NCBI GenBank assembly: GCA_963555755.3
Contig: OY820905.2
Coordinates: 1,664,001 to 1,728,000 of the forward strand
Source: Nitrospirales bacterium
GTDB lineage: Bacteria; Nitrospirota; Nitrospiria; Nitrospirales; UBA8639
Reading direction: 5' to 3'
Length of the DNA stretch: 64,000 bases
The position numbers and the translations under genes are program-made. Below the pieces are notes generated by a model. It ran no database searches and had not been told where the DNA came from. It was given only the letters and a program-made list of their open reading frames with translations. This document shows, piece after piece, positions 6,880 to 32,537 of this stretch. Numbering within the stretch: position 1 is the first letter of the stretch; each line of letters opens with the position of its first letter.

Positions 6880-7117
6880 TCAGAGATGAAAGGTGGGGAG
6901 GAAATCAAGGCCGGTTGAGAAAATCAAGAACCGAATAAAGGGAGAACATTCAGTTGTTTTAGCTAACCATAGAGTTCAAGCCTACATTCCGCACTTGAAA
7001 ACGTGTATTTTTCTGCCCCTCATGTATCGCCTCCTTTTTTTGCACCAAACTGGTGTTGAGGGATTTTGAGGAGTCGCAGCACCTGATGCTGTGGCTCGGA
7101 CAGCTCATCCCAAAAGG

Positions 7118-9020
7118 CAGGGCTATTTCATTTTAAAGTGCAACTTCATAGATAATAAGGGATAATCGATTTAGGCTGGCTTTTTCTTTTCGTTTGGGGC
7201 ATACTCTTTTTCATGCCAGACGAATCGCCAAACGGACATCCGGCCATCGATCTTGGGCAAGTCGTAGTTCGACCGATTGTCCCGGACGAGAAGGAAGCCT
7301 TCACGACCCTTCTCGCCCGACATCACTACCTCGGGCCTGCCCCGTTGATTGGCCCATCGATCCAATATCTCGCCTGTGTGCAGGATCGCTGGCTGGCCTT
7401 GCTGGTGTTTGCGGCGGCGGCCCTCAAATCGAGAGCGCGAGACCACTGGATCGGCTGGCCCCCCTGTTTCCAATGGCAACGCCTCCATTTACTTGCCAAC
7501 AACACCCGGTTTCTCATCCTGCCGGACTGTTCGCAACAAAACCTCGCCTCGAAAGTCCTGTCGCTCTGCGCGAAACGGATCGCGGCCGATTGGCACCTGT
7601 GCCACGGCTACCCCTTGCTCCTCTTAGAGACCTTCGTCGATCCTGCCCGCTTCACCGGGACCTGCTATCGAGCCGCCGGGTGGCAGGAGCTCGGGCTGAC
7701 ACGCGGGTTTCGCAAGTCCAATACGCGGTATGTTCAGCATGACCGCCCGAAACGCATCCTGGTCAAGAGCCTACATCCCCAAGCCCGAGAGATTCTTGCA
7801 CGCCCGATGCTTGATCCGACCTATCAGAAAGGAGAGGTGCCTCAGATGCGATTGAATACCAAGCAGACGGACTCCCTGTTTACCTATGTGGTGCAGCTGA
7901 CCGATCCACGCAAGTTGCAAGGGCAACGACATCCCCGACGAGCTCTCACCGCGATCATGTTCTGTGCCACCTTGTGTGGAGCACGTGGGTATGAAGCCAT
8001 AGCGGACTGGGCCCAGCATTTATCCCAGACGATGAGAAAGCGGCTGGGCTGTCCCAAGCGAGGAGGGCGCTACCTCGTCCCAAGCCGCAGCACTCTCTAC
8101 CGGTTTATCAATGCCGTCGACCCCTGTGAAGTCGATACCCTGCTCGGCCGGTGGCTGGATACCTTCGGCGGGGAGGATCAGGGCATCGCCATTGATGGCA
8201 AGACCATGCGGGGGACTTCGAAGGTCCCGAGCGAACAGACCCATGTCCTCAGTGCCGTCACCCATGACGAGGGGCGCCACCTCACCCCAAAAAAGTCGAC
8301 ACCAAGACCAATGAGATCCCCTGCGTGCGTCCCTTATTCGATGAGCTGGAGATCGAAGGGAAGGTCATCACGGCGGATGCGCTCCTCACCCAGAAAGAGA
8401 TCGCAAATTACCTTGTGCAAGAACGCGGGGCCGACTTCGTCTTCACCGTCAAGGGGAACCAGCCGACCTTGAAACGCGACATTGAGGCCTTGGCGTTGCG
8501 AGTACGACGGTGTGATACTGAAACAACCGATAAAGGCCATGGGCGGATCACGACCCGTAGGATCTGGTGTGACGACTCCTTGAATGCCTCTGTCACCTTT
8601 CCCCATGTGCAGCAAGTCTTCTGCATTGAGAGGGAAGTCGCGCATCTCAAGAAGGGCATCACGACGGTAGATACCGTATGCGGAGTCACGAGTCAGTCAC
8701 CAGCGAAGGCATCGCCGCAGAAAATCCTCTCGCAAAACCGGAACCATTGGAGTGTGGAGAATAAGCAGCATTATGTGTTGGATGTCACCTTTGATGAAGA
8801 CCGGAGTCAGATCAGACGGCTCAATGGCCCGATGGTCATGACCTGTCTGAGACGCTATGCCATCAGTCTCTTACGCGTGAAAGGCAACACCAATATCGCG
8901 CAGGCGTTTAGATGGCTCTGGGCCAAGCCGCATGTAGCCATCCGTATGGCCTTGCCCTGAAAAAGAGAGCAAAAAAACCTAATGGAACCACTTGCTTATA
9001 AAAAGAATGAAATGGCCCTG
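7118..9020 (+). mobile_element. ISAs1-family element copy 1 (intact)
   Basis: TIR cagggc(t/c)atttcatt; 9-bp TSD cccaaaagg at 7109-7117 and 9021-9029. Confidence 0.9.
7213..8960 (+). CDS. DUF4338 (DruA-like) domain fused to ISAs1 transposase; probable -1 frameshift
   Basis: N-terminal HHYLG/RDHWIGW/NNTRFLIL/LETFVD/GTCYRAAGW, then DPR..GQRH and IAIDGKT. A_AAA_AAG at 8289-8295 leads in the -1 frame to KTNEIP, TADAL, VKGNQ, HWSVEN and FDEDRSQIR. Confidence 0.85.
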
Positions 9021-17972: not shown

Positions 17973-19406
17973 GAGTCAAGCCCAAAGTTAGTTGAAATTC
18001 TCCATGGTTCCCGGGTTCATGTTACGCGGCCTTCTTTGGTCCGGCCTTCCCAATTTTTAAGTCTCGTCGCAGGGCCTCGCGTAAGCGGGGTAAGTGCCGA
18101 TAGCCCTTCACCTTGTTGAGCCGAGGCTCGATCTCCAGCAAGGCGGTGGCCAGCCACCGCTGCCGCTGATTCGAGTTCGTCCAGCGATCCACCTTGGCAC
18201 ACCGCTCCTCCACTAAGGCATTGATGGATTCCAGGCAATTCGTTGTTTTGAAGGACAGCCCGACGAGGGCAAACACTCCCAGCCGATGCAAGGTCAACGT
18301 CTCCTCCTGGCCTTCCGCCAGACTCTGCGCGGCCGATTGGTTGCGGCCCTCCAGCTCCGTCTGCAAGCGATGCAGGGCGGTGGACGCCTCCGCATACGTC
18401 GGGCGCTGATAGGCCCGGTGCAGCCGGGCCCGCCAGGTGGCCTGTTCGCCTTTCGGTAAGTGCTTCACCACATTCTCCCGTTTGTGCCACTGGCACCGTT
18501 GGACCACGGCCGAGGCGCCAAAGGCTTGCCGCACGGCGGCGCGCAGGCCTTTGGCCCCATCAATGCTGACCAAGAGGCCGTCAGAACTGTCGAGGCCCCG
18601 GTCACATAACGAGTGCAGAAAGGGCGTCAAGACTTTCTCGTTTTCAGTCCCCGTTTCCACAAACCCCAGGACGTGTTTCTCCCCCGTGAGCGTGATGCCC
18701 ACGGCGATCACCATCGTCATGTCGGCGAAGGCTTTCCCGTCGAGAAAGACGGCAACGATGTCCAGGTCGCTCAGGTCGCGGTTCTGAAACGCCTGGAGCT
18801 GCTTGGCGCTGGCTTGCGTAAAGCTCCGAGACACCGTCGAGCTTGACAGGCCAATCGCCCCCGGGACCGCCGCTGCGGCCGCTTCATAGTTCCGGCAGGA
18901 AATCCCATAGAGCACGCGCTTGAGCAGGCCCTCATCCAGCTGGCCCGGGCCGCGAAGGTGGCCCACGCTCTGTAAGGAAATCTCACCGCCTTCCACATGC
19001 TGGACACGAGGGATCCGAACCGGATGGCGTTGACCCGCCAGTTGGACACTCCCCGGATTGCTCCCATGCCGATAGCCGGGCAGATGCGAAGCCTTCCGCG
19101 CATACCGAGCCCCGGCCAACGTGTACACCTCCTCCTCTAGGAGTTCTTGAATCCGCATTAAGCCCAACGGGATGAGGGCTTGAATACATTCCACCTTGCT
19201 GTTCACATCGAAGGCCTCATACTGCTCAGGCCGAATCACCCGCACCGGCCCCAACCGTTTCGCCTTCTTGCTTCTTGGTCTTGATTGCGGGATACGTTCC
19301 ATCGTGGCTCCTTTCTCGTTTGAGTAATGATGTTTAATTAGGTAATCACCATTACAACATAGCAGGGGGAGCCACTTCAAATTTCAACTAACAATAGCAC
19401 ACACTC
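17973..19406 (-). mobile_element. IS256-family element
   Basis: Imperfect 27-bp TIR gagt...gttagttgaaatt; flanks not duplicated. Confidence 0.85.
18022..19302 (-). CDS. IS256-family transposase
   Basis: VFLDG, GEKHVLG, IDGAKGL, QRCQWHKREN and TTNCLESIN. Confidence 0.93.
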   Translation of the reverse strand: MERIPQSRPRSKKAKRLGPVRVIRPEQYEAFDVNSKVECIQALIPLGLMRIQELLEEEVYTLAGARYARKASHLPGYRHGSNPGSVQLAGQRHPVRIPRVQHVEGGEISLQSVGHLRGPGQLDEGLLKRVLYGISCRNYEAAAAAVPGAIGLSSSTVSRSFTQASAKQLQAFQNRDLSDLDIVAVFLDGKAFADMTMVIAVGITLTGEKHVLGFVETGTENEKVLTPFLHSLCDRGLDSSDGLLVSIDGAKGLRAAVRQAFGASAVVQRCQWHKRENVVKHLPKGEQATWRARLHRAYQRPTYAEASTALHRLQTELEGRNQSAAQSLAEGQEETLTLHRLGVFALVGLSFKTTNCLESINALVEERCAKVDRWTNSNQRQRWLATALLEIEPRLNKVKGYRHLPRLREALRRDLKIGKAGPKKAA

Positions 19407-22654: not shown

Positions 22655-23389
22655 ATGAACATACTGATATTAGGTGCGACATCAGCCATTGCACAAGAGA
22701 CAGCAAAATATTGGGCACAAGAAGGGGCCAATCTTTTCCTGGTTGCTCGAGACAAGGAAAAACTTGCAGCGGTGGCATCGGATCTACAAGTTCGTGGGGC
22801 ATCACAAGTTGTAGAATACCCACTCGATCTTGGTCACATCGATGTGCATCAACAACTCATCCAAGTGGCCATCCACAACCTTGGAGACTTGGATGTCGCT
22901 TTCGTGGCCTACGGAACTTTGAGTGACCAAGCAACCTGTACACAAAGTGTTACTGAAACACTCAAAGAGTTTACCGTGAACTGCACTAGCGTCATTTCTC
23001 TCTTAACCTTACTGGCCAACCATTTTGAACAACAGAAAAAAGGATGTTTAGCCGTTATTACGTCTGTGGCTGGAGACCGTGGGAGGCAAAGTAATTACGT
23101 CTATGGTGCAGCTAAAGGTGCCGTGAGTATTTTTTTGCAGGGCCTACGCAATCGCCTGACCCCCTTCGGAGTCACCGTTCTCACGCTCAAACCCGGTTTT
23201 GTGGATACACCAATGACAGCCCATATCCCCAAAAATCCGCTTTTTGCAAACCCCAAATCCGTAGGGAAACGCATATACAAAGCCGTAAAAAACCAAGAAG
23301 ATGTAGTCTACATCCCAAGTTTTTGGCGTCCCATTATGACGATGATCACTCACATCCCAGAACGATTTTTTAAAAGACTTGAATTATGA
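22655..23389 (+). CDS. dprE2: DprE2-like short-chain reductase
   Basis: LGATSAIA, SVAGDRGRQSNYVYGAAK and KPGFVDTPMT; follows dprE1. Confidence 0.82.
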   Translation: MNILILGATSAIAQETAKYWAQEGANLFLVARDKEKLAAVASDLQVRGASQVVEYPLDLGHIDVHQQLIQVAIHNLGDLDVAFVAYGTLSDQATCTQSVTETLKEFTVNCTSVISLLTLLANHFEQQKKGCLAVITSVAGDRGRQSNYVYGAAKGAVSIFLQGLRNRLTPFGVTVLTLKPGFVDTPMTAHIPKNPLFANPKSVGKRIYKAVKNQEDVVYIPSFWRPIMTMITHIPERFFKRLEL

Positions 23390-23395
23390 TGACGA

Positions 23396-23724
23396 GAATA
23401 GGAAATTCAAAAAGCCTTTTTGACTGGATAGGAAAGTACCAAAGAACGCGGTGAGGGGTCAATCCGCAAACTTCGCCGTCTGAAAGGCGGGAGTTCATCC
23501 GGTGAGTCGGGGCTTCCTGGCCCTTGGGCCAAGGTTCATGTCAGTTCTAGAAAACCAAACGTAGCACGATCCCACTGTTAGGCTCTGGCTTAGTCGGCCT
23601 CATCGGCTACTGGATGAGGAAGATACACGCGTAAAATAAGTTATTAATAACGGAATCACGCAGACAAAGAGCCTCATCGCTTCGGCGGTGGGGCTTTCTC
23701 TCATTCAAACATCAATCCCCATCA
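23396..23724. repeat. Repeat unit 1: minus-strand promoter-like block, PEP-CTERM remnant and hairpin
   Basis: 23396-23463 resembles 27625-27692; STIPLLGSGLVGLIGYWMRKIHA* ends at 23634; 23670-23724 resembles 27797-27851. Confidence 0.7.
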
Positions 23725-24348: not shown

Positions 24349-24463
24349 GCATAGTAAGGGTAGAGTAGAGCACTGGTGCATACATGGAGCTGCTCTCGAA
24401 CGCTTCGACGCACGCGTCTACCACGGACCATAGCAGTCAGCACTTCCCAGCGCCCCCTCATCA

Positions 24464-26457
24464 GTAGGGTCGAGGACTGGCGCGCCAACGGTAGGGTTCG
24501 GTGGCTCCTCCACCCCTTTCGGAATGGGCCTCAGTCCGACTCCCCTGGTCACGGTTCCAGTCCCCGCCACCTCAAACCCGGCGTGCTGATTTCCAGCACC
24601 GGGCTTTCCTGGATGCTTCACCTCAAGGGTTATGTGACCTATCAGCCTGGAAGGACTTTCATGCCGACCCGTTGTACCGCACTCGGTAATCTCCATATAA
24701 GCCAAGTACCGTGTAGAGCCAAACCTTACTCCACCTCTTCCAGCCAAAACCTCGACGGTGGCGCACTCGCATCATGTGCCGCCGGACCTTCCGCTCCACC
24801 CAATCCTTCACGTAGGATAAACACCGACTCGCATGCCCAATCCGGAAGTAGTTCACCCAGCCCCGTACGATCGGATTGATCATGGCGATCATCCGTCCCA
24901 CCGGCTGGGATTGCCCGCGTCGGAACACTTCCTTGAGCTTCCGCAGCAACGCGGTGCGCCGCTTCACCTTCGGTATGTACTGCGGGCGCCACACTCCACG
25001 CCGCGACCGCACACGCCGAAAGTCAAAGCCCAGAAAGCCGAAGCTGCCTCCCTGACTCAGGTCCACGATTCGGCTCTTCTCCTCATTCACCTGAAGGTCT
25101 AATTGGGCCAACGCCTCTCGCAGCTTCCGCTCCGCAACCTGCGCCAGTTGTGCGTGGCGGCGATAGCCATCCACTAACACGACGAGGTCATCCGCAAACC
25201 GGACATACTCGAGATACGTATACTGGCCCTGCCGGGTTGTCTCCTTCAGCTGCTCCAGCCTCTCATCCACTTCCGTGAGATAGAGGTTGGCCAGCAGCGG
25301 GGAAATCACACCCCCTTGAGGCACCCCACGCGGGCCGGACGCCTTGACGATGAGTTTCACCAGCCGCAGGATCGCGGGATCCTGGATGCGTCGGGCCACC
25401 TTCGCCAGCAGCCGGTCATGCCGCACCGTGTCGAAGAAGGCCGCCAGATCCACATCAATCACTCGCGTCTTGTTCTGCACCATCGCCTGAGCCACCCGGC
25501 CAATCGCCTGGTGGGCTGTCCGTTTCGGTCGATACCCATACGACCCATCACGAAAATCCGCCTCAAAGATCGGTTCCAGCAGGAGCTTGAGCGCTCCCTG
25601 TACCACGCGGTCCCGAATCGCGGGTATCCCTAAGACGCGGACTCGTCCACCGCCTTTCGAAATCTCCACGTGCCGGTTCCGCATCGGTCGGTAGGTCTGC
25701 GTGACCAGTTCGTCCCGTAGTCGTGCAAGAAAGGGCTCCACCCCCGTGGCCTCGATGCCAGCAAACGTCACCCCATCAATGCCGGGGGCTCCGTTGTTTT
25801 TCTTGGCCATCGAATAGGCCGCGCGTAGCGTCGCCTCTTTGCACACGTGGACGTACAGGCCCCACACCCGCCATCGCTTCTCAGCCTTCGCCTTGACGTA
25901 GAGCCGCTGTCGCAGGTCTTGCAGTGTAATGGACGCCGTTGTCATCTCGTCCCTGCCTCCCATGTTGATCACAGCCTACAGCCAGTAGGGCTCCTTTGCT
26001 CCACAGGCATGACCCTGCTTCCTCGCTCCTACGAGCCCCTCCGCCACCCTCTCGTCTTCGGCTCACTTCCCAGAGAGCTGGTTATAGAGCCGATCTTCCT
26101 CCAGGGATTTCTCCCTGGGACGAGGAGGGCTTCTCCAGTTGCGTCGTCTGTCCTTGCTCCCGTGCTGTCGCTCTCACCCCGCCGGAGTGGCCAGGCGTCT
26201 CAGCCTTGGTTCGCCTGTCCATGCCGTCTTCGTCCTACGGACAGGGACTCGACCTCCGAGGTTTCATACTTTCGAGGCTACCTCTGCGTTCACTTGCGTT
26301 ACGGCCCGGGAACTCGCTCACCATCCTCTACGATGGCTTTGTCGATGGGCTTCAGCGTCTCGGTTTCTCTCCACGCTGCCATCCAAGCTACAGGGCTCAG
26401 GCTCTTACCCTGGTGGGCTTGCTTCCCACTGAACAGTCTCGCCTTACCTGGACACAC
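24464..26457 (-). mobile_element. Inner group II intron (1994 nt) encoding an RT
   Basis: 5' GTGTG; DV GAAAGCCCGGTGCTGGAAATCAGCACGCCGGGTTTG; 3' end ...cgaccctac. Confidence 0.9.
24659..25945 (-). CDS. ltrA: Group II intron reverse transcriptase/maturase, no endonuclease domain
   Basis: GAPGIDG, LGIPAIRDRVVQ, SYGYRP, PQGGVISPLLAN, RFADD, FLGF and GWVNYF. Confidence 0.95.
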   Translation of the reverse strand: MTTASITLQDLRQRLYVKAKAEKRWRVWGLYVHVCKEATLRAAYSMAKKNNGAPGIDGVTFAGIEATGVEPFLARLRDELVTQTYRPMRNRHVEISKGGGRVRVLGIPAIRDRVVQGALKLLLEPIFEADFRDGSYGYRPKRTAHQAIGRVAQAMVQNKTRVIDVDLAAFFDTVRHDRLLAKVARRIQDPAILRLVKLIVKASGPRGVPQGGVISPLLANLYLTEVDERLEQLKETTRQGQYTYLEYVRFADDLVVLVDGYRRHAQLAQVAERKLREALAQLDLQVNEEKSRIVDLSQGGSFGFLGFDFRRVRSRRGVWRPQYIPKVKRRTALLRKLKEVFRRGQSQPVGRMIAMINPIVRGWVNYFRIGHASRCLSYVKDWVERKVRRHMMRVRHRRGFGWKRWSKVWLYTVLGLYGDYRVRYNGSA

Positions 26458-27172
26458 ATCCGTGCGTATGGTTTTCCCATACACGGCTTTCCGATGTTCT
26501 TCTTCCAGCGGCATGCGTCTGTCATCAGGCAATAGCCACATTCAGACTTGGCCTTCTGAGATAGTTTCCTCTGTAGTGTCCTGATCGTGCTCGGGGTGGT
26601 TAGCGCAATGGCAATCCCCTGATCCTCCACTCGTCGGAAACGTGAACAAAGTAGGGTCCCTTCCCTCGGGCCGGGTTGTGTTGTCCCAGGCTCTCCAACG
26701 GTACTATGAACCCCTCCGACTCCCACGACGGCCCGCAGCGATTTCGGTATCCCTTATACGCCTCAGTTGCTGGTTCTGCGCCAGCACCGTCGCGGGTCTC
26801 CCGTCCTGCACGGTGTCTCTTCCGCCACATGCCATCCCTGCTACCCCGGAAGATCCTGAGGGTGGGTGTTCGTTCTACTCCCTCAAACGGCGGCCTTCCC
26901 CTTCTGACCACAGGGTCGGCATCTCCAATTCGTTTACGAGGCTACATCTAGGTTCGCTTGCGCTACGGCCTGCGGCTTTGCCCATGGGAAACTTCAACCC
27001 CTGATTACTCAGACGCTGCTTCCTGGTGCTAGAAAGGTGTACGAACAACTCCTTTCGCGGGACTTCAACCCGCTAGACACACCGCCGATGACGGCATGCG
27101 GTCAAGTCGTCCTTTGGCGTACTTTCAATAATGCCGTTGGATGGCTTAACTCCTATTCCTTAATTGACATGT

Positions 27173-27364: not shown

Positions 27365-27405
27365 TAGTTGCCCCCCCTTTCTCTAGATCTGAAAACAATT
27401 TATAG

Positions 27406-27586
27406 GGCGGAGAGTAGAGGTCCGGCTACTACGGTCGCAGGGGCTCCCTGCGCAGCCCATCCGCACTCGCTGATGCCAGTCTTCGACTAACGGCTATTCC
27501 TCCCTTGGGTCGGCGCTCGTTTGTTTCGAATCCTCTCCCCTTGATCATTTCGGCGTGGGCCGAAATTGGCGGAGAGTAGAGGATTC
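27406..27586 (-). other. Two tRNA 3'-end-like fragments (possible att scars)
   Basis: gaatcctctactctccgcca (27586-27567), repeated in part at 27420-27406. Confidence 0.55.
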
Positions 27587-27624
27587 CTGAGACCTCAATT
27601 TCCCCAATTCATTTGATCATCAAG

Positions 27625-27851
27625 GAATAGGAATTTTAAACGGCCTTTTTGACTGGGCAGGAAAGTACCAAAGAATTTACTGAAGGGTCAATGACCAGGC
27701 TCTGATGTTACTGTCAACCGGCCTGGTTGGGCTGATTGGGTACAGGATGAAGAAGAAAGCGTAACCGAGTCGTCGAACAAGACGACCACACATATAAGCC
27801 TCATCGTTGCGGCGGTGGGGCTTTCTCTCATTCAAACACCAACCCCCATCA
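27625..27851. repeat. Repeat unit 2 with a PEP-CTERM remnant
   Basis: ALMLLSTGLVGLIGYRMKKKA* at 27699-27764, with the same flanking blocks as unit 1. Confidence 0.7.
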
Positions 27852-27866
27852 TACTCACTTTTTTGC

Positions 27867-28760: not shown

Positions 28761-29864
28761 CCGAGTCGCCATACAGGCAGGGCCATTTCATTCTTTTTAT
28801 AAGCAAGTGGTTCCATTAGGTTTTTTTGCTCTCTTTTTCAGGGCAAGGCCATACGGATGGCTACATGCGGCTTGGCCCAGAGCCATCTAAACGCCTGCGC
28901 GATATTGGTGTTGCCTTTCACGCGTAAGAGACTGATGGCATAGCGTCTCAGACAGGTCATGACCATCGGGCCATTGAGCCGTCTGATCTGACTCCGGTCT
29001 TCATCAAAGGTGACATCCAACACATAATGCTGCTTATTCTCCACACTCCAATGGTTCCGGTTTTGCGAGAGGATTTTCTGCGGCGATGCCTTCGCTGGTG
29101 ACTGACTCGTGACTCCGCATACGGTATCTACCGTCGTGATGCCCTTCTTGAGATGCGCGACTTCCCTCTCAATGCAGAAGACTTGCTGCACATGGGGAAA
29201 GGTGACAGAGGCATTCAAGGAGTCGTCACACCAGATCCTACGGGTCGTGATCCGCCCATGGCCTTTATCGGTTGTTTCAGTATCACACCGTCGTACTCGC
29301 AACGCCAAGGCCTCAATGTCGCGTTTCAAGGTCGGCTGGTTCCCCTTGACGGTGAAGACGAAGTCGGCCCCGCGTTCTTGCACAAGGTAATTTGCGATCT
29401 CTTTCTGGGTGAGGAGCGCATCCGCCGTGATGACCTTCCCTTCGATCTCCAGCTCATCGAATAAGGGACGCACGCAGGGGATCTCATTGGTCTTGGTGTC
29501 GACTTTTTTGGGGTGAGGTGGCGCCCCTCGTCATGGGTGACGGCACTGAGGACATGGGTCTGTTCGCTCGGGACCTTCGAAGTCCCCCGCATGGTCTTGC
29601 CATCAATGGCGATGCCCTGATCCTCCCCGCCGAAGGTATCCAGCCACCGGCCGAGCAGGGTATCGACTTCACAGGGGTCGACGGCATTGATAAACCGGTA
29701 GAGAGTGCTGCGGCTTGGGACGAGGTAGCGCCCTCCTCGCTTGGGACAGCCCAGCCGCTTTCTCATCGTCTGGGATAAATGCTGGGCCCAGTCCGCTATG
29801 GCTTCATACCCACGTGCTCCACACAAGGTGGCACAGAACATGATCGCGGTGAGAGCTCGTCGGG

Positions 29865-31712
29865 CGGATCTTCCCCCCATGTTTGCCACCTAAGCTGTTG
29901 GAATTCTTCAGGGAAAGATTGGATTGCTCTCTGGAATGTAGGCATGTAATTGTTGTTTTATCTTGACTATAATGCTTTATTTATGCTATACATAAAGCAT
30001 GTATATCGCCACCGTTCCTAACCGCACCTCCCCGCCCGCCATTTTATTGCGCGAAAGCTACCGAGCGGGCGGCAAGGTGAAGACCCGGACCCTGGCCAAT
30101 CTGACCTCGTGGCCTCCGGCTCGCGTAGACGCGCTCAAGCGCTGCCTCCGTGGGGATTTCGATGGAACGGAAGACGAGGCGGGCCCCGTGAGTGATCGGA
30201 TCTTTGGCGTCCTCTTCGCCCTGAAAGCGGTGGCCCAACGGGTGGGAGTGGTGTCGGCCTTGGGTCCGAAACGAGTAGCCAAGCTCGCCCTGTTCCTGGT
30301 GCTGGCACGAGTGGCTCATCAGGGTTCGCGGCTGTCAGCCGTGCGGTGGGCCACCGATCATGCGGTCGCTGAGGTGTTGGGATTGCCCGCCTTTGACGAG
30401 GATGACCTGTACGAGGCCTTAGACTGGTTGGGCACCCAACAAGAAGCCATCGAGAAGAAACTGTATCGGGCCTATGTCCAGCGGACCGGCCAGCCACCGG
30501 TCTTGGTGCTCTATGACGTGACCTCCTCCTATTTTGAGGGGGACAAGAATGAACTGGCCGCCTATGGGTATAACCGGGACGGCAAGAAACACAAGAAGCA
30601 GATTGTCATTGGCTTGCTGACAGGGCCGGATGGTGAGCCGCTGGCCGTCACGGTGTTCAAGGGGAATACGGCGGATCCCCGCACGGTCGCCGAGCAGATT
30701 GAACGGATCAAGACCCAGTTCAAGATCACCGACGTCGTGTGTGTGGGGGATCGGGGGATGGTGAAAGCCGCAGGCAAGGCGGCCCTCACCGAGCAGGGAC
30801 TCAAGTACCTCACCGCCCTCACTGACCCGCAGATTCGCACCTTGCTGAAGAAAGATGTGCTCCAACTCAATTTGTTTGATGAGACGATACAGGAAGTGGA
30901 GGATGGGTCTCGTCGGCTGATCCTGCGGCGGAATGAGGCGTTGCGCCACACGGTGGCCACGCGACGTCAGGACAAAGTGGCCACACTGCAGCAGAAGGTC
31001 GCGGCGCGCAATGCGTTTGTTCAGACGGCCAAGCGGGCCACCCCGGCGGCGGGACAGCGGCAGCTGACCCAGTGGGCCAAGAAGCACAAGCTCTCCGCCT
31101 TCACCACCCTCGCCCTGCAGGGGACCCAGCTTGTGGTCGAGATTGATGAGGCCAAGCAGGCCGAGGCGGCCCTGTTGGATGGCTGTTCGGTGCTGGAAAC
31201 CGATGTGGCTCGGGACACGATGGATGCCGCGACGGTGGATGCCCGGTACCGGGACCTGCAACGGGTGGAACGCGACTTCCGGACGATGAAGACGGGCTTG
31301 CTCGAACTGCGCCCCATCTTTGTGCGGAAGGAGAGCCGCACGCGTGGCCATGTCTTTGCCGCGATGCTCGCCCTGAAAGTGGCCCGGGAAGGCGAGCGAG
31401 GCCTGAAGGAGGCGTTTGGGACGACGGAGCAGAGCGCCCAGGCGCTGACCCTTCAAGACGCCCTGGGGGCCCTGTCACGATTGTGTTTCCAACGCCATGC
31501 AATCGGCGGGCAGGAGGTGCTTCAGCTGGCTCGCCCCGATGCTAGGCAGGCAACCATCTTTGCCGCATTGGGGATCACCCCGCCTGCCACCACCACACGG
31601 CCAGCCAAGGTGCATGTGTAGGCAGAGACGTGGCCTCGCCCAAACCGTGACTTCTTCAATGACATCAAAAGGTTAGAGCCAAAAATCCGCCCAAAACTCG
31701 GGGGAAGATCCG
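29865..31712 (+). mobile_element. Second, distinct IS1634-family element
   Basis: TIR cggatcttccccc; 5-bp TSD tcggg at 29860-29864 and 31713-31717. Confidence 0.9.
29999..31621 (+). CDS. IS1634-family transposase
   Basis: LLRESYR..GKVKTRTLANL, YDVTSSYFEG, GYNRDGK, VGDRGM and VERDFRTMK. Confidence 0.93.
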   Translation: MYIATVPNRTSPPAILLRESYRAGGKVKTRTLANLTSWPPARVDALKRCLRGDFDGTEDEAGPVSDRIFGVLFALKAVAQRVGVVSALGPKRVAKLALFLVLARVAHQGSRLSAVRWATDHAVAEVLGLPAFDEDDLYEALDWLGTQQEAIEKKLYRAYVQRTGQPPVLVLYDVTSSYFEGDKNELAAYGYNRDGKKHKKQIVIGLLTGPDGEPLAVTVFKGNTADPRTVAEQIERIKTQFKITDVVCVGDRGMVKAAGKAALTEQGLKYLTALTDPQIRTLLKKDVLQLNLFDETIQEVEDGSRRLILRRNEALRHTVATRRQDKVATLQQKVAARNAFVQTAKRATPAAGQRQLTQWAKKHKLSAFTTLALQGTQLVVEIDEAKQAEAALLDGCSVLETDVARDTMDAATVDARYRDLQRVERDFRTMKTGLLELRPIFVRKESRTRGHVFAAMLALKVAREGERGLKEAFGTTEQSAQALTLQDALGALSRLCFQRHAIGGQEVLQLARPDARQATIFAALGITPPATTTRPAKVHV

Positions 31713-32537
31713 TCGGGGATGCCGTTGCCCTTGCAACTTGCGTGGATCGGTCAGCTTCACCACATAGGTAAACAGGGAGTCCGTCTGCTTGGTATTCAAT
31801 CGCATCTGAGGCACCTTTCCTTTCTGATAGGTCGGATCAAGCATCGGGCGTGCAAGAATCTCTCGGGCTTGGGGATGGAGGCTCTTGACCAGGATGCGTT
31901 TCGGGCGGTCATGCTGAACATACCGCGTATTGGACTTGCGAAACCCGCGTGTCAGCCCGAGCTCCTGCCACCCGGCGGCTCGATAGCAGGTCCCGGTGAA
32001 GCGGGCAGGATCGACGAAGGTCTCTAAGAGGAGCAAGGGGTAGCCGTGGCACAGGTGCCAATCGGCCGCGATCCGTTTCGCGCAGAGCGACAGGACTTTC
32101 GAGGCGAGGTTTTGTTGCGAACAGTCCGGCAGGATGAGAAACCGGGTGTTGTTGGCAAGTAAATGGAGGCGTTGCCATTGGAAACAGGGGGGCCAGCCGA
32201 TCCAGTGGTCTCGCGCTCTCGATTTGAGGGCCGCCGCCGCAAACACCCGCAAGGCCAGCCAGCGATCCTGCACACAGGCGAGATATTGGATCGAGGGGCC
32301 AATCAACGGGGCAGGCCCGAGGTAGTGATGTCGGGCGAGAAGGGTCGTGAAGGCTTCCTTCTCGTCCGGGACAATCGGTCGAACTACGACTTGCCCAAGA
32401 TCGATGGCCGGATGTCCGCTTGGCGATTCGTCTGGCATGAAAAAGAGTATGCCCCAAACGAAAAGAAAAAGCCAGCCTAAATCGATTATCCCTTATTATC
32501 TATGAAGTTGCACTTTAAAATGAAATAGCCCTGGACT

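Follow-up and report, generated by a model that had tools for sequence, protein, structure and literature searches.

The question raised by the locus studied here is why an intact group II intron lies precisely within domain V (DV) of another group II intron. The window, i.e., the whole 64,000-nucleotide (nt) stretch of contig OY820905.2 from a Nitrospirales bacterium (G000:C1:1664001-1728000, G000 being the genome of the window), contains on its minus strand two group II domain I (DI) matches and an intact open reading frame (ORF) that encodes a reverse transcriptase (RT)/maturase, the element being flanked by ORFs of 132 codons (plus strand) and 63 codons (minus strand). An earlier note on this DNA had described an RT-encoding intron nested in an ORF-less one, and this intergenic arrangement turned out to be a real twintron. 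We consider it very probable that the inner intron, which is inserted at the DV base of a 746-nt ORF-less intron and whose exon-binding sites (EBS1 and EBS2) show complementarity to the 3' strand of this hairpin, spreads by retrohoming into the DV of other introns. This reading is based on position and geometry, pairing, copy structure, covariation across relatives, and empty alleles. Throughout, G001 to G004 denote other genomes with host introns, L numbers denote relative loci that were fetched, and X numbers denote sequencing runs.

The inner intron comprises 1,994 nt, starts with GTGTG and terminates with CCTAC, whereby genome BLAST in G000 set its ends, with 14 junctions found on the 5' side and 15 on the 3' side. 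This genome harbors 13 full copies at different sites, which implies that the intron is mobile. The same extent was found in sequencing runs, where a Logan contig of run X10 is exactly 1,994 nt long and matches 24464-26457, and a contig of run X2 has a joint that jumps exactly 1,994 nt. An empty site is provided by a full-length uninterrupted sibling of the outer intron (G000:C1:228319-230290), which continues across this junction without a single inserted or missing letter. Thus, removing the 1,994 nt restores the outer DV and domain VI (DVI) exactly, as had been claimed, and the empty sibling fixes the inner ends; such precise nesting of one intron in another defines a twintron. The suggested insertion in DV was also correct and can be refined to the DV base. 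The host DV comprises 33 nt and the insertion follows nt 32, directly 3' of the partner of the triad A, with 1 nt lying beyond. It disrupts only the DV closing pair and the link between DV and DVI, whereby 2 kb come to lie between these two domains and the DV hairpin still folds in the precursor. From the sequence, it may be that the outer intron splices only after the inner one, as proposed in the earlier note. What is surely blocked by the insert is the DV-DVI (branching) arrangement, since the DV hairpin is nearly intact.

A check proposed earlier was whether the inner EBS1 pairs with the sequence ending CACGGAT. It does: EBS1 (GUCCGU) forms 6/6 pairs with ACGGAT at positions -1 to -6, and EBS2 (GUAUG) forms 5/5 pairs with CATAC at positions -9 to -13, whereby both targets are located on the 3' strand of DV. 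When folded as single sequences, the EBS regions did not perform better than shuffled ones, and the EBS assignment therefore rests on alignment and covariation. Within G000, 11 of the 12 primary insertion sites are at the same DV position. These include nine DVs of the host family (seven from ORF-less and two from full-length introns) and two DV halves that also carry an insertion sequence (IS). The remaining primary site is a non-DV sequence with 6/6 EBS1 pairing, and none of the 12 sites corresponds to RT active-site codons (RYADD motif). Copies with EBS1 GACCGU are all inserted at ACGGTT (3/3), those with GUCCGU at ACGGAT (six), ACGGTT (two), and ACGGAC (one).

Several of the G000 copies are found in unusual surroundings. 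Two further copies stand in tandem in a trimer at G000:C1:2.16 Mb, where three inner copies that differ in haplotype follow one another head-to-tail in an ORF-less host (2159913-2166640). An IS-like element, which has inverted ends and apparently a 12-bp duplication, is located in the DV loop of two introns (G000:C1:1024305-1024330 and 1251095-1252977), the DV 3' half of which also holds the invader, so two parasites share one hairpin. Behind the outer intron at 2226040, and separated from it by a short spacer, lie the 3' part of a further inner copy and a host DVI (G000:C1:2222683-2223301), an arrangement that points to an older twintron into which the intron inserted or with which it recombined. 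In cousin and sibling introns at G000:C1:5129-11269 and 802706-796872, the ORFs are broken by a third intron (RT matches at 7019-7765 and 800816-800070) and the DV invader is present as well.

Relatives from other genomes were compared by fetching the best 80 of 597 genome loci, 61 of which gave a 5' end and 58 of which had at least 36 nt of flank. A test for a DV ending at the insertion junction (the DV rule, which misses L019 with an unusual triad and L002 with half a DV) was passed by 26 of these 58 relatives, representing 21 genomes and at least eight named phyla, as against 127 of 20,000 random positions. The flanks of homologous introns, which the earlier note had recommended to examine, thus agree with DV insertion in these 26 loci. 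Pairing between EBS1 and the intron-binding site IBS1 averaged 5.69 of 6 over the 58 loci (L005, with a false-match 5' end, and L008, with a broken domain I, stay in the 58 and were left out of this average) compared to 3.23 after shuffling, with a maximum of 3.69 in 2,000 shuffles; for EBS2-IBS2 the mean was 4.17 of 5 over 24 DV loci compared to 3.04 after shuffling, with the mean of 4.17 reached in 0 of 5,000 shuffles. EBS1 also tracks unusual host hairpins (ACGGAA, CCGGGT, GCCGTT), and the DV hosts differ in their Rfam domain I type (D1D4-2, -4, or -6). In G004, the 5' flank is visible at 15 loci, 13 of which are DV sites, distributed over three host types, and two are non-DV. The host DV at L023:91-379 shows the same atypical stem as the invader's own family, and a fragment upstream of it is 70% identical to the start of the invader RT; the EBS1 of this invader has changed to match the host, apparently an attack within the family. 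The 5' flanks of the non-DV loci L020, L022, L028, L029, and L035 are recurring motifs, namely, short GC-rich hairpins or sequences resembling IS ends, and these are possibly further specialised targets.

Table 1. Features of the twintron on the minus strand (window positions; IEP, intron-encoded protein; DII to DIV, domains II to IV).
Feature	Position	Strand	Remarks
Inner group II intron, g2-like, DV-targeting	24464..26457 (1,994 nt)	-	copy junctions, Rfam/Pfam profiles, Logan contig
Inner domain I, Rfam group-II-D1D4-4	26294..26431	-	112 bits
Inner EBS1 GUCCGU, Id3 loop	26237..26242	-	pairs with IBS1
Inner EBS2 GUAUG	26265..26269	-	pairs with upper 3' strand of host DV
Inner RT/maturase ORF	24659..25972	-	437 aa from GTG; RVT_1 + GIIM; FADD
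Inner intron's own DV	24574..24606	-	lower stem atypical; 3/6 pairs with own EBS1
Inner DVI	24464..24571	-	bulged branch A at 24470; 3' end AC
Outer intron 5' part: DI-DIV + DV nt 1-32	26458..27099	-	5' end GCATG at 27099
Outer intron 3' part: last DV nt (24463) + DVI	24360..24463	-	bulged branch A at 24366; 3' end AC at 24360
Outer EBS1 GGUCAG	26904..26909	-	alignment of copies, fold
Outer IBS1 TTGACC, end of 5' exon, outside intron	27100..27105	-	EBS1 pairing, copy junctions
Outer IEP remnant, ~25 codons (76 nt)	26534..26609	-	start ATG -> ATT vs sibling
Outer DV nt 1-32	26458..26489	-	triad AGC 26488-26486; IBS2 26470-26466; IBS1 26463-26458; triad G faces A, not U

In the proposed mechanism, the inner intron would first be spliced from a read-through transcript, thereby rejoining the host DV and DVI. 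The ORF-less host would then splice and retrohome to YTGACC|CC sites by using a sibling IEP in trans, and would thus generate new empty DV sites. Finally, the inner ribonucleoprotein (RNP) would reverse-splice into these sites, probably on the lagging-strand template; such a fork-linked route is probable because a Pfam search of the inner IEP revealed no match to an endonuclease family. As IBS1 and IBS2 stay upstream after insertion, the inner intron could land again and give rise to tandem arrays.

The outer intron had been described as extending over 24360..27105. Its end at 24360 holds, whereas the other end was corrected to 27099, which is given by EBS1 pairing and copy junctions; on the same grounds, both 27105 and a GTGTG 17 nt downstream were rejected as 5' ends. 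In all 15 outer and cousin copies listed, a YTGACC exon pairs with the outer EBS1. The outer RNA keeps DI to DIII, which the earlier note had left to be checked: Rfam D1D4-6 matches at 26834-27066 with 63.4 bits, and the helices of DI, DII, and DIII fold across six relatives with 129 predicted pairs, 33 of which show two-sided change (among few, related sequences). Only about 25 codons are left, as already recognized, of an IEP that has 443 aa in the full sibling. The outer family lacks the canonical GUGYG 5' end and has GCATG (window), GTATG (G001), or GTTCG (cousins) in its place, and in 7 of the 10 copies of the host family the triad G faces A and not U. Nucleotide changes at the position facing the triad G can be tolerated. 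A literature search for mutagenesis data on DV found none. Since copies with these non-canonical ends and triads occupy several sites, we infer that such outer introns are functional. The outer family homes to its target often within short low-complexity tandem repeats.

The earlier note had further proposed that the outer intron needs a maturase in trans, and candidates for this role do exist. Two siblings with complete RT ORFs are located at C1:228k and C1:240k, whose DI-DIII are ~93% identical to those of the window host, and G004 contains a full-length host sibling with a complete IEP and 90% identity in DI. The ORF-less host probably moves alone by means of an intact sibling protein and is then re-invaded. 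The host domain I lies less than 800 nt upstream, which is too near for an IEP, in 13 of the 24 DV loci scanned, compared to three with a full upstream RT, so DV hosts are often ORF-less. It could therefore be argued that the ORF-less host uses the RT of the invader as its maturase and that the twintron constitutes a two-part element instead of a host with a parasite. In G003, the only intact group II RT found is indeed that of the invader (of four RVT_1 matches, two are truncated and one is weak), and two host copies are 98.5% identical; however, G003 is a single genome, from which a sibling may have disappeared. The complete sibling IEPs in G000 and G004, the identity of only 40% between inner and sibling IEPs, and the fact that the window host has retained the beginning of its ORF region, described as the usual IEP-binding subdomain (PMC12584367), make such mutual dependence improbable.

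Several observations weigh against the reading that the inner intron homes into DV. Pairing is insufficient to explain the sites, since 58 genome sites have ACGGWY together with five EBS2 pairs and only nine of them are occupied, and six DVs in the right orientation with 5+4 pairs are empty in G000. The GC skew indicates an origin at ~2.71 Mb and a terminus at ~0.57 Mb, and 14/14 copies are oriented as expected for lagging-template insertion, but this strand bias is confounded, as 18 of the 21 DVs listed share that orientation. Among the relatives, 32 of 58 fail the DV rule, most of them having other EBS1 sequences that match their own sites, and in a 70-row clade the DV label is scattered such that a quick tree needs 11 changes, which makes targeting labile. 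The EBS shuffle tests ignore kinship between the loci. In addition, contigs from the RNA runs X9 and X11 cover the element and not the flanks of this copy, and no spliced joint is listed, whereby contigs cannot show absence; of the raw run X21, no reads could be placed. The earlier suggestion that the inner intron may specialise in the DV of other introns is thus supported by EBS pairing, by the sites in its own genome, and by its relatives, but such specialisation is not absolute. On the quick tree, an ancestral DV targeting with repeated loss looks the same as repeated gain. Because pairing alone leaves the choice of DV unexplained, it is likely that some further determinant (contacts of the IEP or a hairpin in the DNA) acts or that other sites are selected against. 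In this context, all five sites with an upstream DNA hairpin of at most -7 kcal/mol are occupied, but these are copies of one hairpin. The empty perfect-match sibling at 228k is opposite in orientation to the invaded sites (9/9 vs 0/1), and this single site hints at orientation as the reason why it is empty.

These observations could also mean that there is no real specialisation, i.e., that the family retargets freely to ACGG(A/T)Y-like sites and that DV insertions survive as intergenic mobile DNA. The interspersed non-DV members in the tree, one non-DV insertion in G000 with EBS1 pairing only, the two in G004, and the many empty but well-pairing sites, some of which are probably in genes, would fit with this. 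Nevertheless, EBS2 as well as EBS1 tracks the host hairpin across 24 loci, EBS1 follows even the unusual hairpin variants, insertion occurs at one and the same phosphodiester in 21 genomes, and DV is far scarcer than other intergenic DNA, so we regard free retargeting as quite unlikely.

The ORF-less hosts of G000 represent four haplotypes that do not track those of the inner introns, and identical hosts hold different inner introns just as identical inner introns are found in more than one host and also at the non-DV site, but this discordance could also stem from recombination or repeat assembly. Empty ORF-less hosts are present in G001, G002, G003, and G004. G002 has 21 matches to the empty site, at least 13 of them on ORF-less hosts that are nearly identical, beside at least 21 near-identical composites, and in G004 about 17 empty hosts compare to four occupied ones (40 of 95 candidates scored). 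The discordant haplotypes and the empty hosts in other genomes argue for a spread of the host followed by re-invasion. That the composite moves as one unit, and DV occupancy reflects descent and not repeated targeting, would account for the occupation of all seven ORF-less host sites in G000, with 98-100% identity over 2.7 kb, and for the composites of G002, but is very improbable and already largely refuted by the exchanged partners, by near-identical inner introns in full-length siblings, by the empty hosts, and by hosts of different Rfam types across phyla.

A broken pair opposite the triad occurs in the DV hosts of 11 of 26 relatives (perhaps five lineages) and in the window host, and both EBS1 alleles segregate in G000, each with a matching host allele. 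It is conceivable, if rather doubtful, that an arms race is going on, in which hosts evade EBS1 by altering the DV nucleotides that face the triad A and G, with the EBS1 of the invader following suit. In that case, the invader would exert selection on that element of group II ribozymes which is most conserved, and DV-based surveys would undercount ORF-less introns. Self-avoidance as a specific adaptation of the invader, for which the weak match of its own DV to its EBS1 was considered, was rejected. The atypical lower stem of the own DV is present in DV-targeting and non-DV members alike, wherever an own DV was found (16 loci each), and may predate or outlast the targeting.

The inner intron shows the characteristics of a mobile group II intron, namely, a GUGYG 5' end, an AY 3' end, DI, a DV with AGC triad, a DVI with bulged A, and an RT and maturase ORF in DIV. 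Its match to Rfam Intron_gpII at 24491-24608 (36.7 bits, E 1e-4) is slightly below the gathering score of 40. The encoded protein scores 104.9 bits with RVT_1 and 61.5 bits with GIIM, and its true start is likely to be an ATG at 25945 behind GGAGG, which would give 428 aa. It carries FADD in RT5, a feature of group g2 of the class F IEPs as defined by Toro and Martinez-Abarca 2013 (PMC3552965), which also share with it the lack of an endonuclease (En) domain, an intron size of ~2.0 kb, and a protein length of 430-447 aa. Among relatives with at least 55% identity, FADD is present in 63 of 71 and YADD in two, neither being found in six. The inner IEP has 49% identity to the g2 intron B.th.I3 of pBMB67 compared to 37% and 30% to two g3 members, the putative g2 placement resting on pairwise identities with these one g2 and two g3 references, and the outer-family IEP carries YADD and is 47% identical to the g3 intron Ni.ha.I1. 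Unlike the inner intron, B.th.I3 of pBMB67 is not at a DV, and the text and table of PMC3552965 list no DV insertion sites for g2.

Twintrons, RYADD homing, ORF-less introns mobilised in trans, and one organellar DV twintron are already known. The RYADD-homing introns M.a.I5, UA.I3, P.l.I2, and B.th.I3 of B. thuringiensis israelensis are, as described in PMC2504315, likewise endonuclease-less, IIB-like, and twintron-making, their IBS1/IBS2 constitute a conserved motif of other retroelements, and fork-dependent mobility was proposed for them as it is here. They target RT active-site codons within an ORF, whereas the inner intron targets the catalytic hairpin, which is present in ORF-less introns, too. 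The B.th.I3 of PMC2504315 is listed with a different locus than that of Toro (pBMB67), and the RYADD homers are set beside the inner intron by their published description. In Thermosynechococcus elongatus, TeI3 has, according to PMC2882425, repeatedly and independently inserted into dispersed copies of TeI4, ORF-less introns are moved in trans, and spread of the host followed by re-invasion was argued likewise. There, the inner intron is ORF-less and positioned within DIV of a close relative, with a start codon on either side; in our case, it carries the RT, the host is ORF-less and distant, and the site is DV. The psbF twintron of Euglena gracilis also consists of a group II intron inside a group II DV, but the account in the review PMC8393795 is of a single chloroplast locus in a gene and describes no DV-aimed mobile lineage. 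The Trichodesmium pair T.e.I7/T.e.I8 (PMC4649490) is another bacterial twintron, for which sequential splicing was shown in vivo; it differs in that the inner intron is in domain I, both introns have ORFs, and it occupies one conserved locus in a gene. Head-to-tail arrays like the 2.16-Mb trimer, which re-use of the 5' exon would lead one to expect, are reported for EcKTE56.groEL, where this retained exon takes up a second copy, but this IIB1 intron is aimed at the groEL stop codon and not at DV (PMC12584367). Our literature search, the scope of which excluded subscription papers and theses, found no description of a bacterial lineage homing into DV, and there is some chance, well below even, that DV homing has been mentioned earlier.

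DV is indispensable to every functional group II intron and therefore represents a renewable, intergenic landing site that is made by other introns. The intron-in-intron strategy would thus extend from the RT gene to the ribozyme core and reach ORF-less hosts as well. With the locus, nature has provided a series in which EBS variants go together with fitting DV variants, and a simple system in which ordered splicing, the specificity of trans-maturases, and the recognition of hairpins by an En-less RNP can be tested. Bacterial ORF-less introns are called rare in a review on the basis of a DV-motif search (PMC4424553), and pipelines anchored on the Rfam DV-DVI model (as in PMC8919778) miss outer introns. 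This blind spot is illustrated by Intron_gpII, which gives no match to the split outer DV-DVI in the window but passes on the uninterrupted sibling (42.8 bits) and reaches 44.7 bits on an empty G001 host.

With respect to the surroundings of the twintron, a promoter and terminator scan gave no more matches than in shuffled sequence, and pieces of the element were found in 4 of 25 related genomes searched, mostly as fragments. The twintron region is flanked by a dispersed repeat (window 23385-23720 and 27600-27860; ~50 BLAST matches each in the genome), for which Rfam gave no match at the gathering score. The region 27395-27605 is single-copy and bounded by a short direct repeat that we take to resemble a tRNA 3' end on the minus strand; ARAGORN predicted no tRNA there. 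ORFs around the locus (18022-19380, 28838-29889, 29999-31621, and 31665-32438) presumably encode IS256-, ISAs1-, and IS1634-like transposases and a Druantia/DUF4338-like frame.

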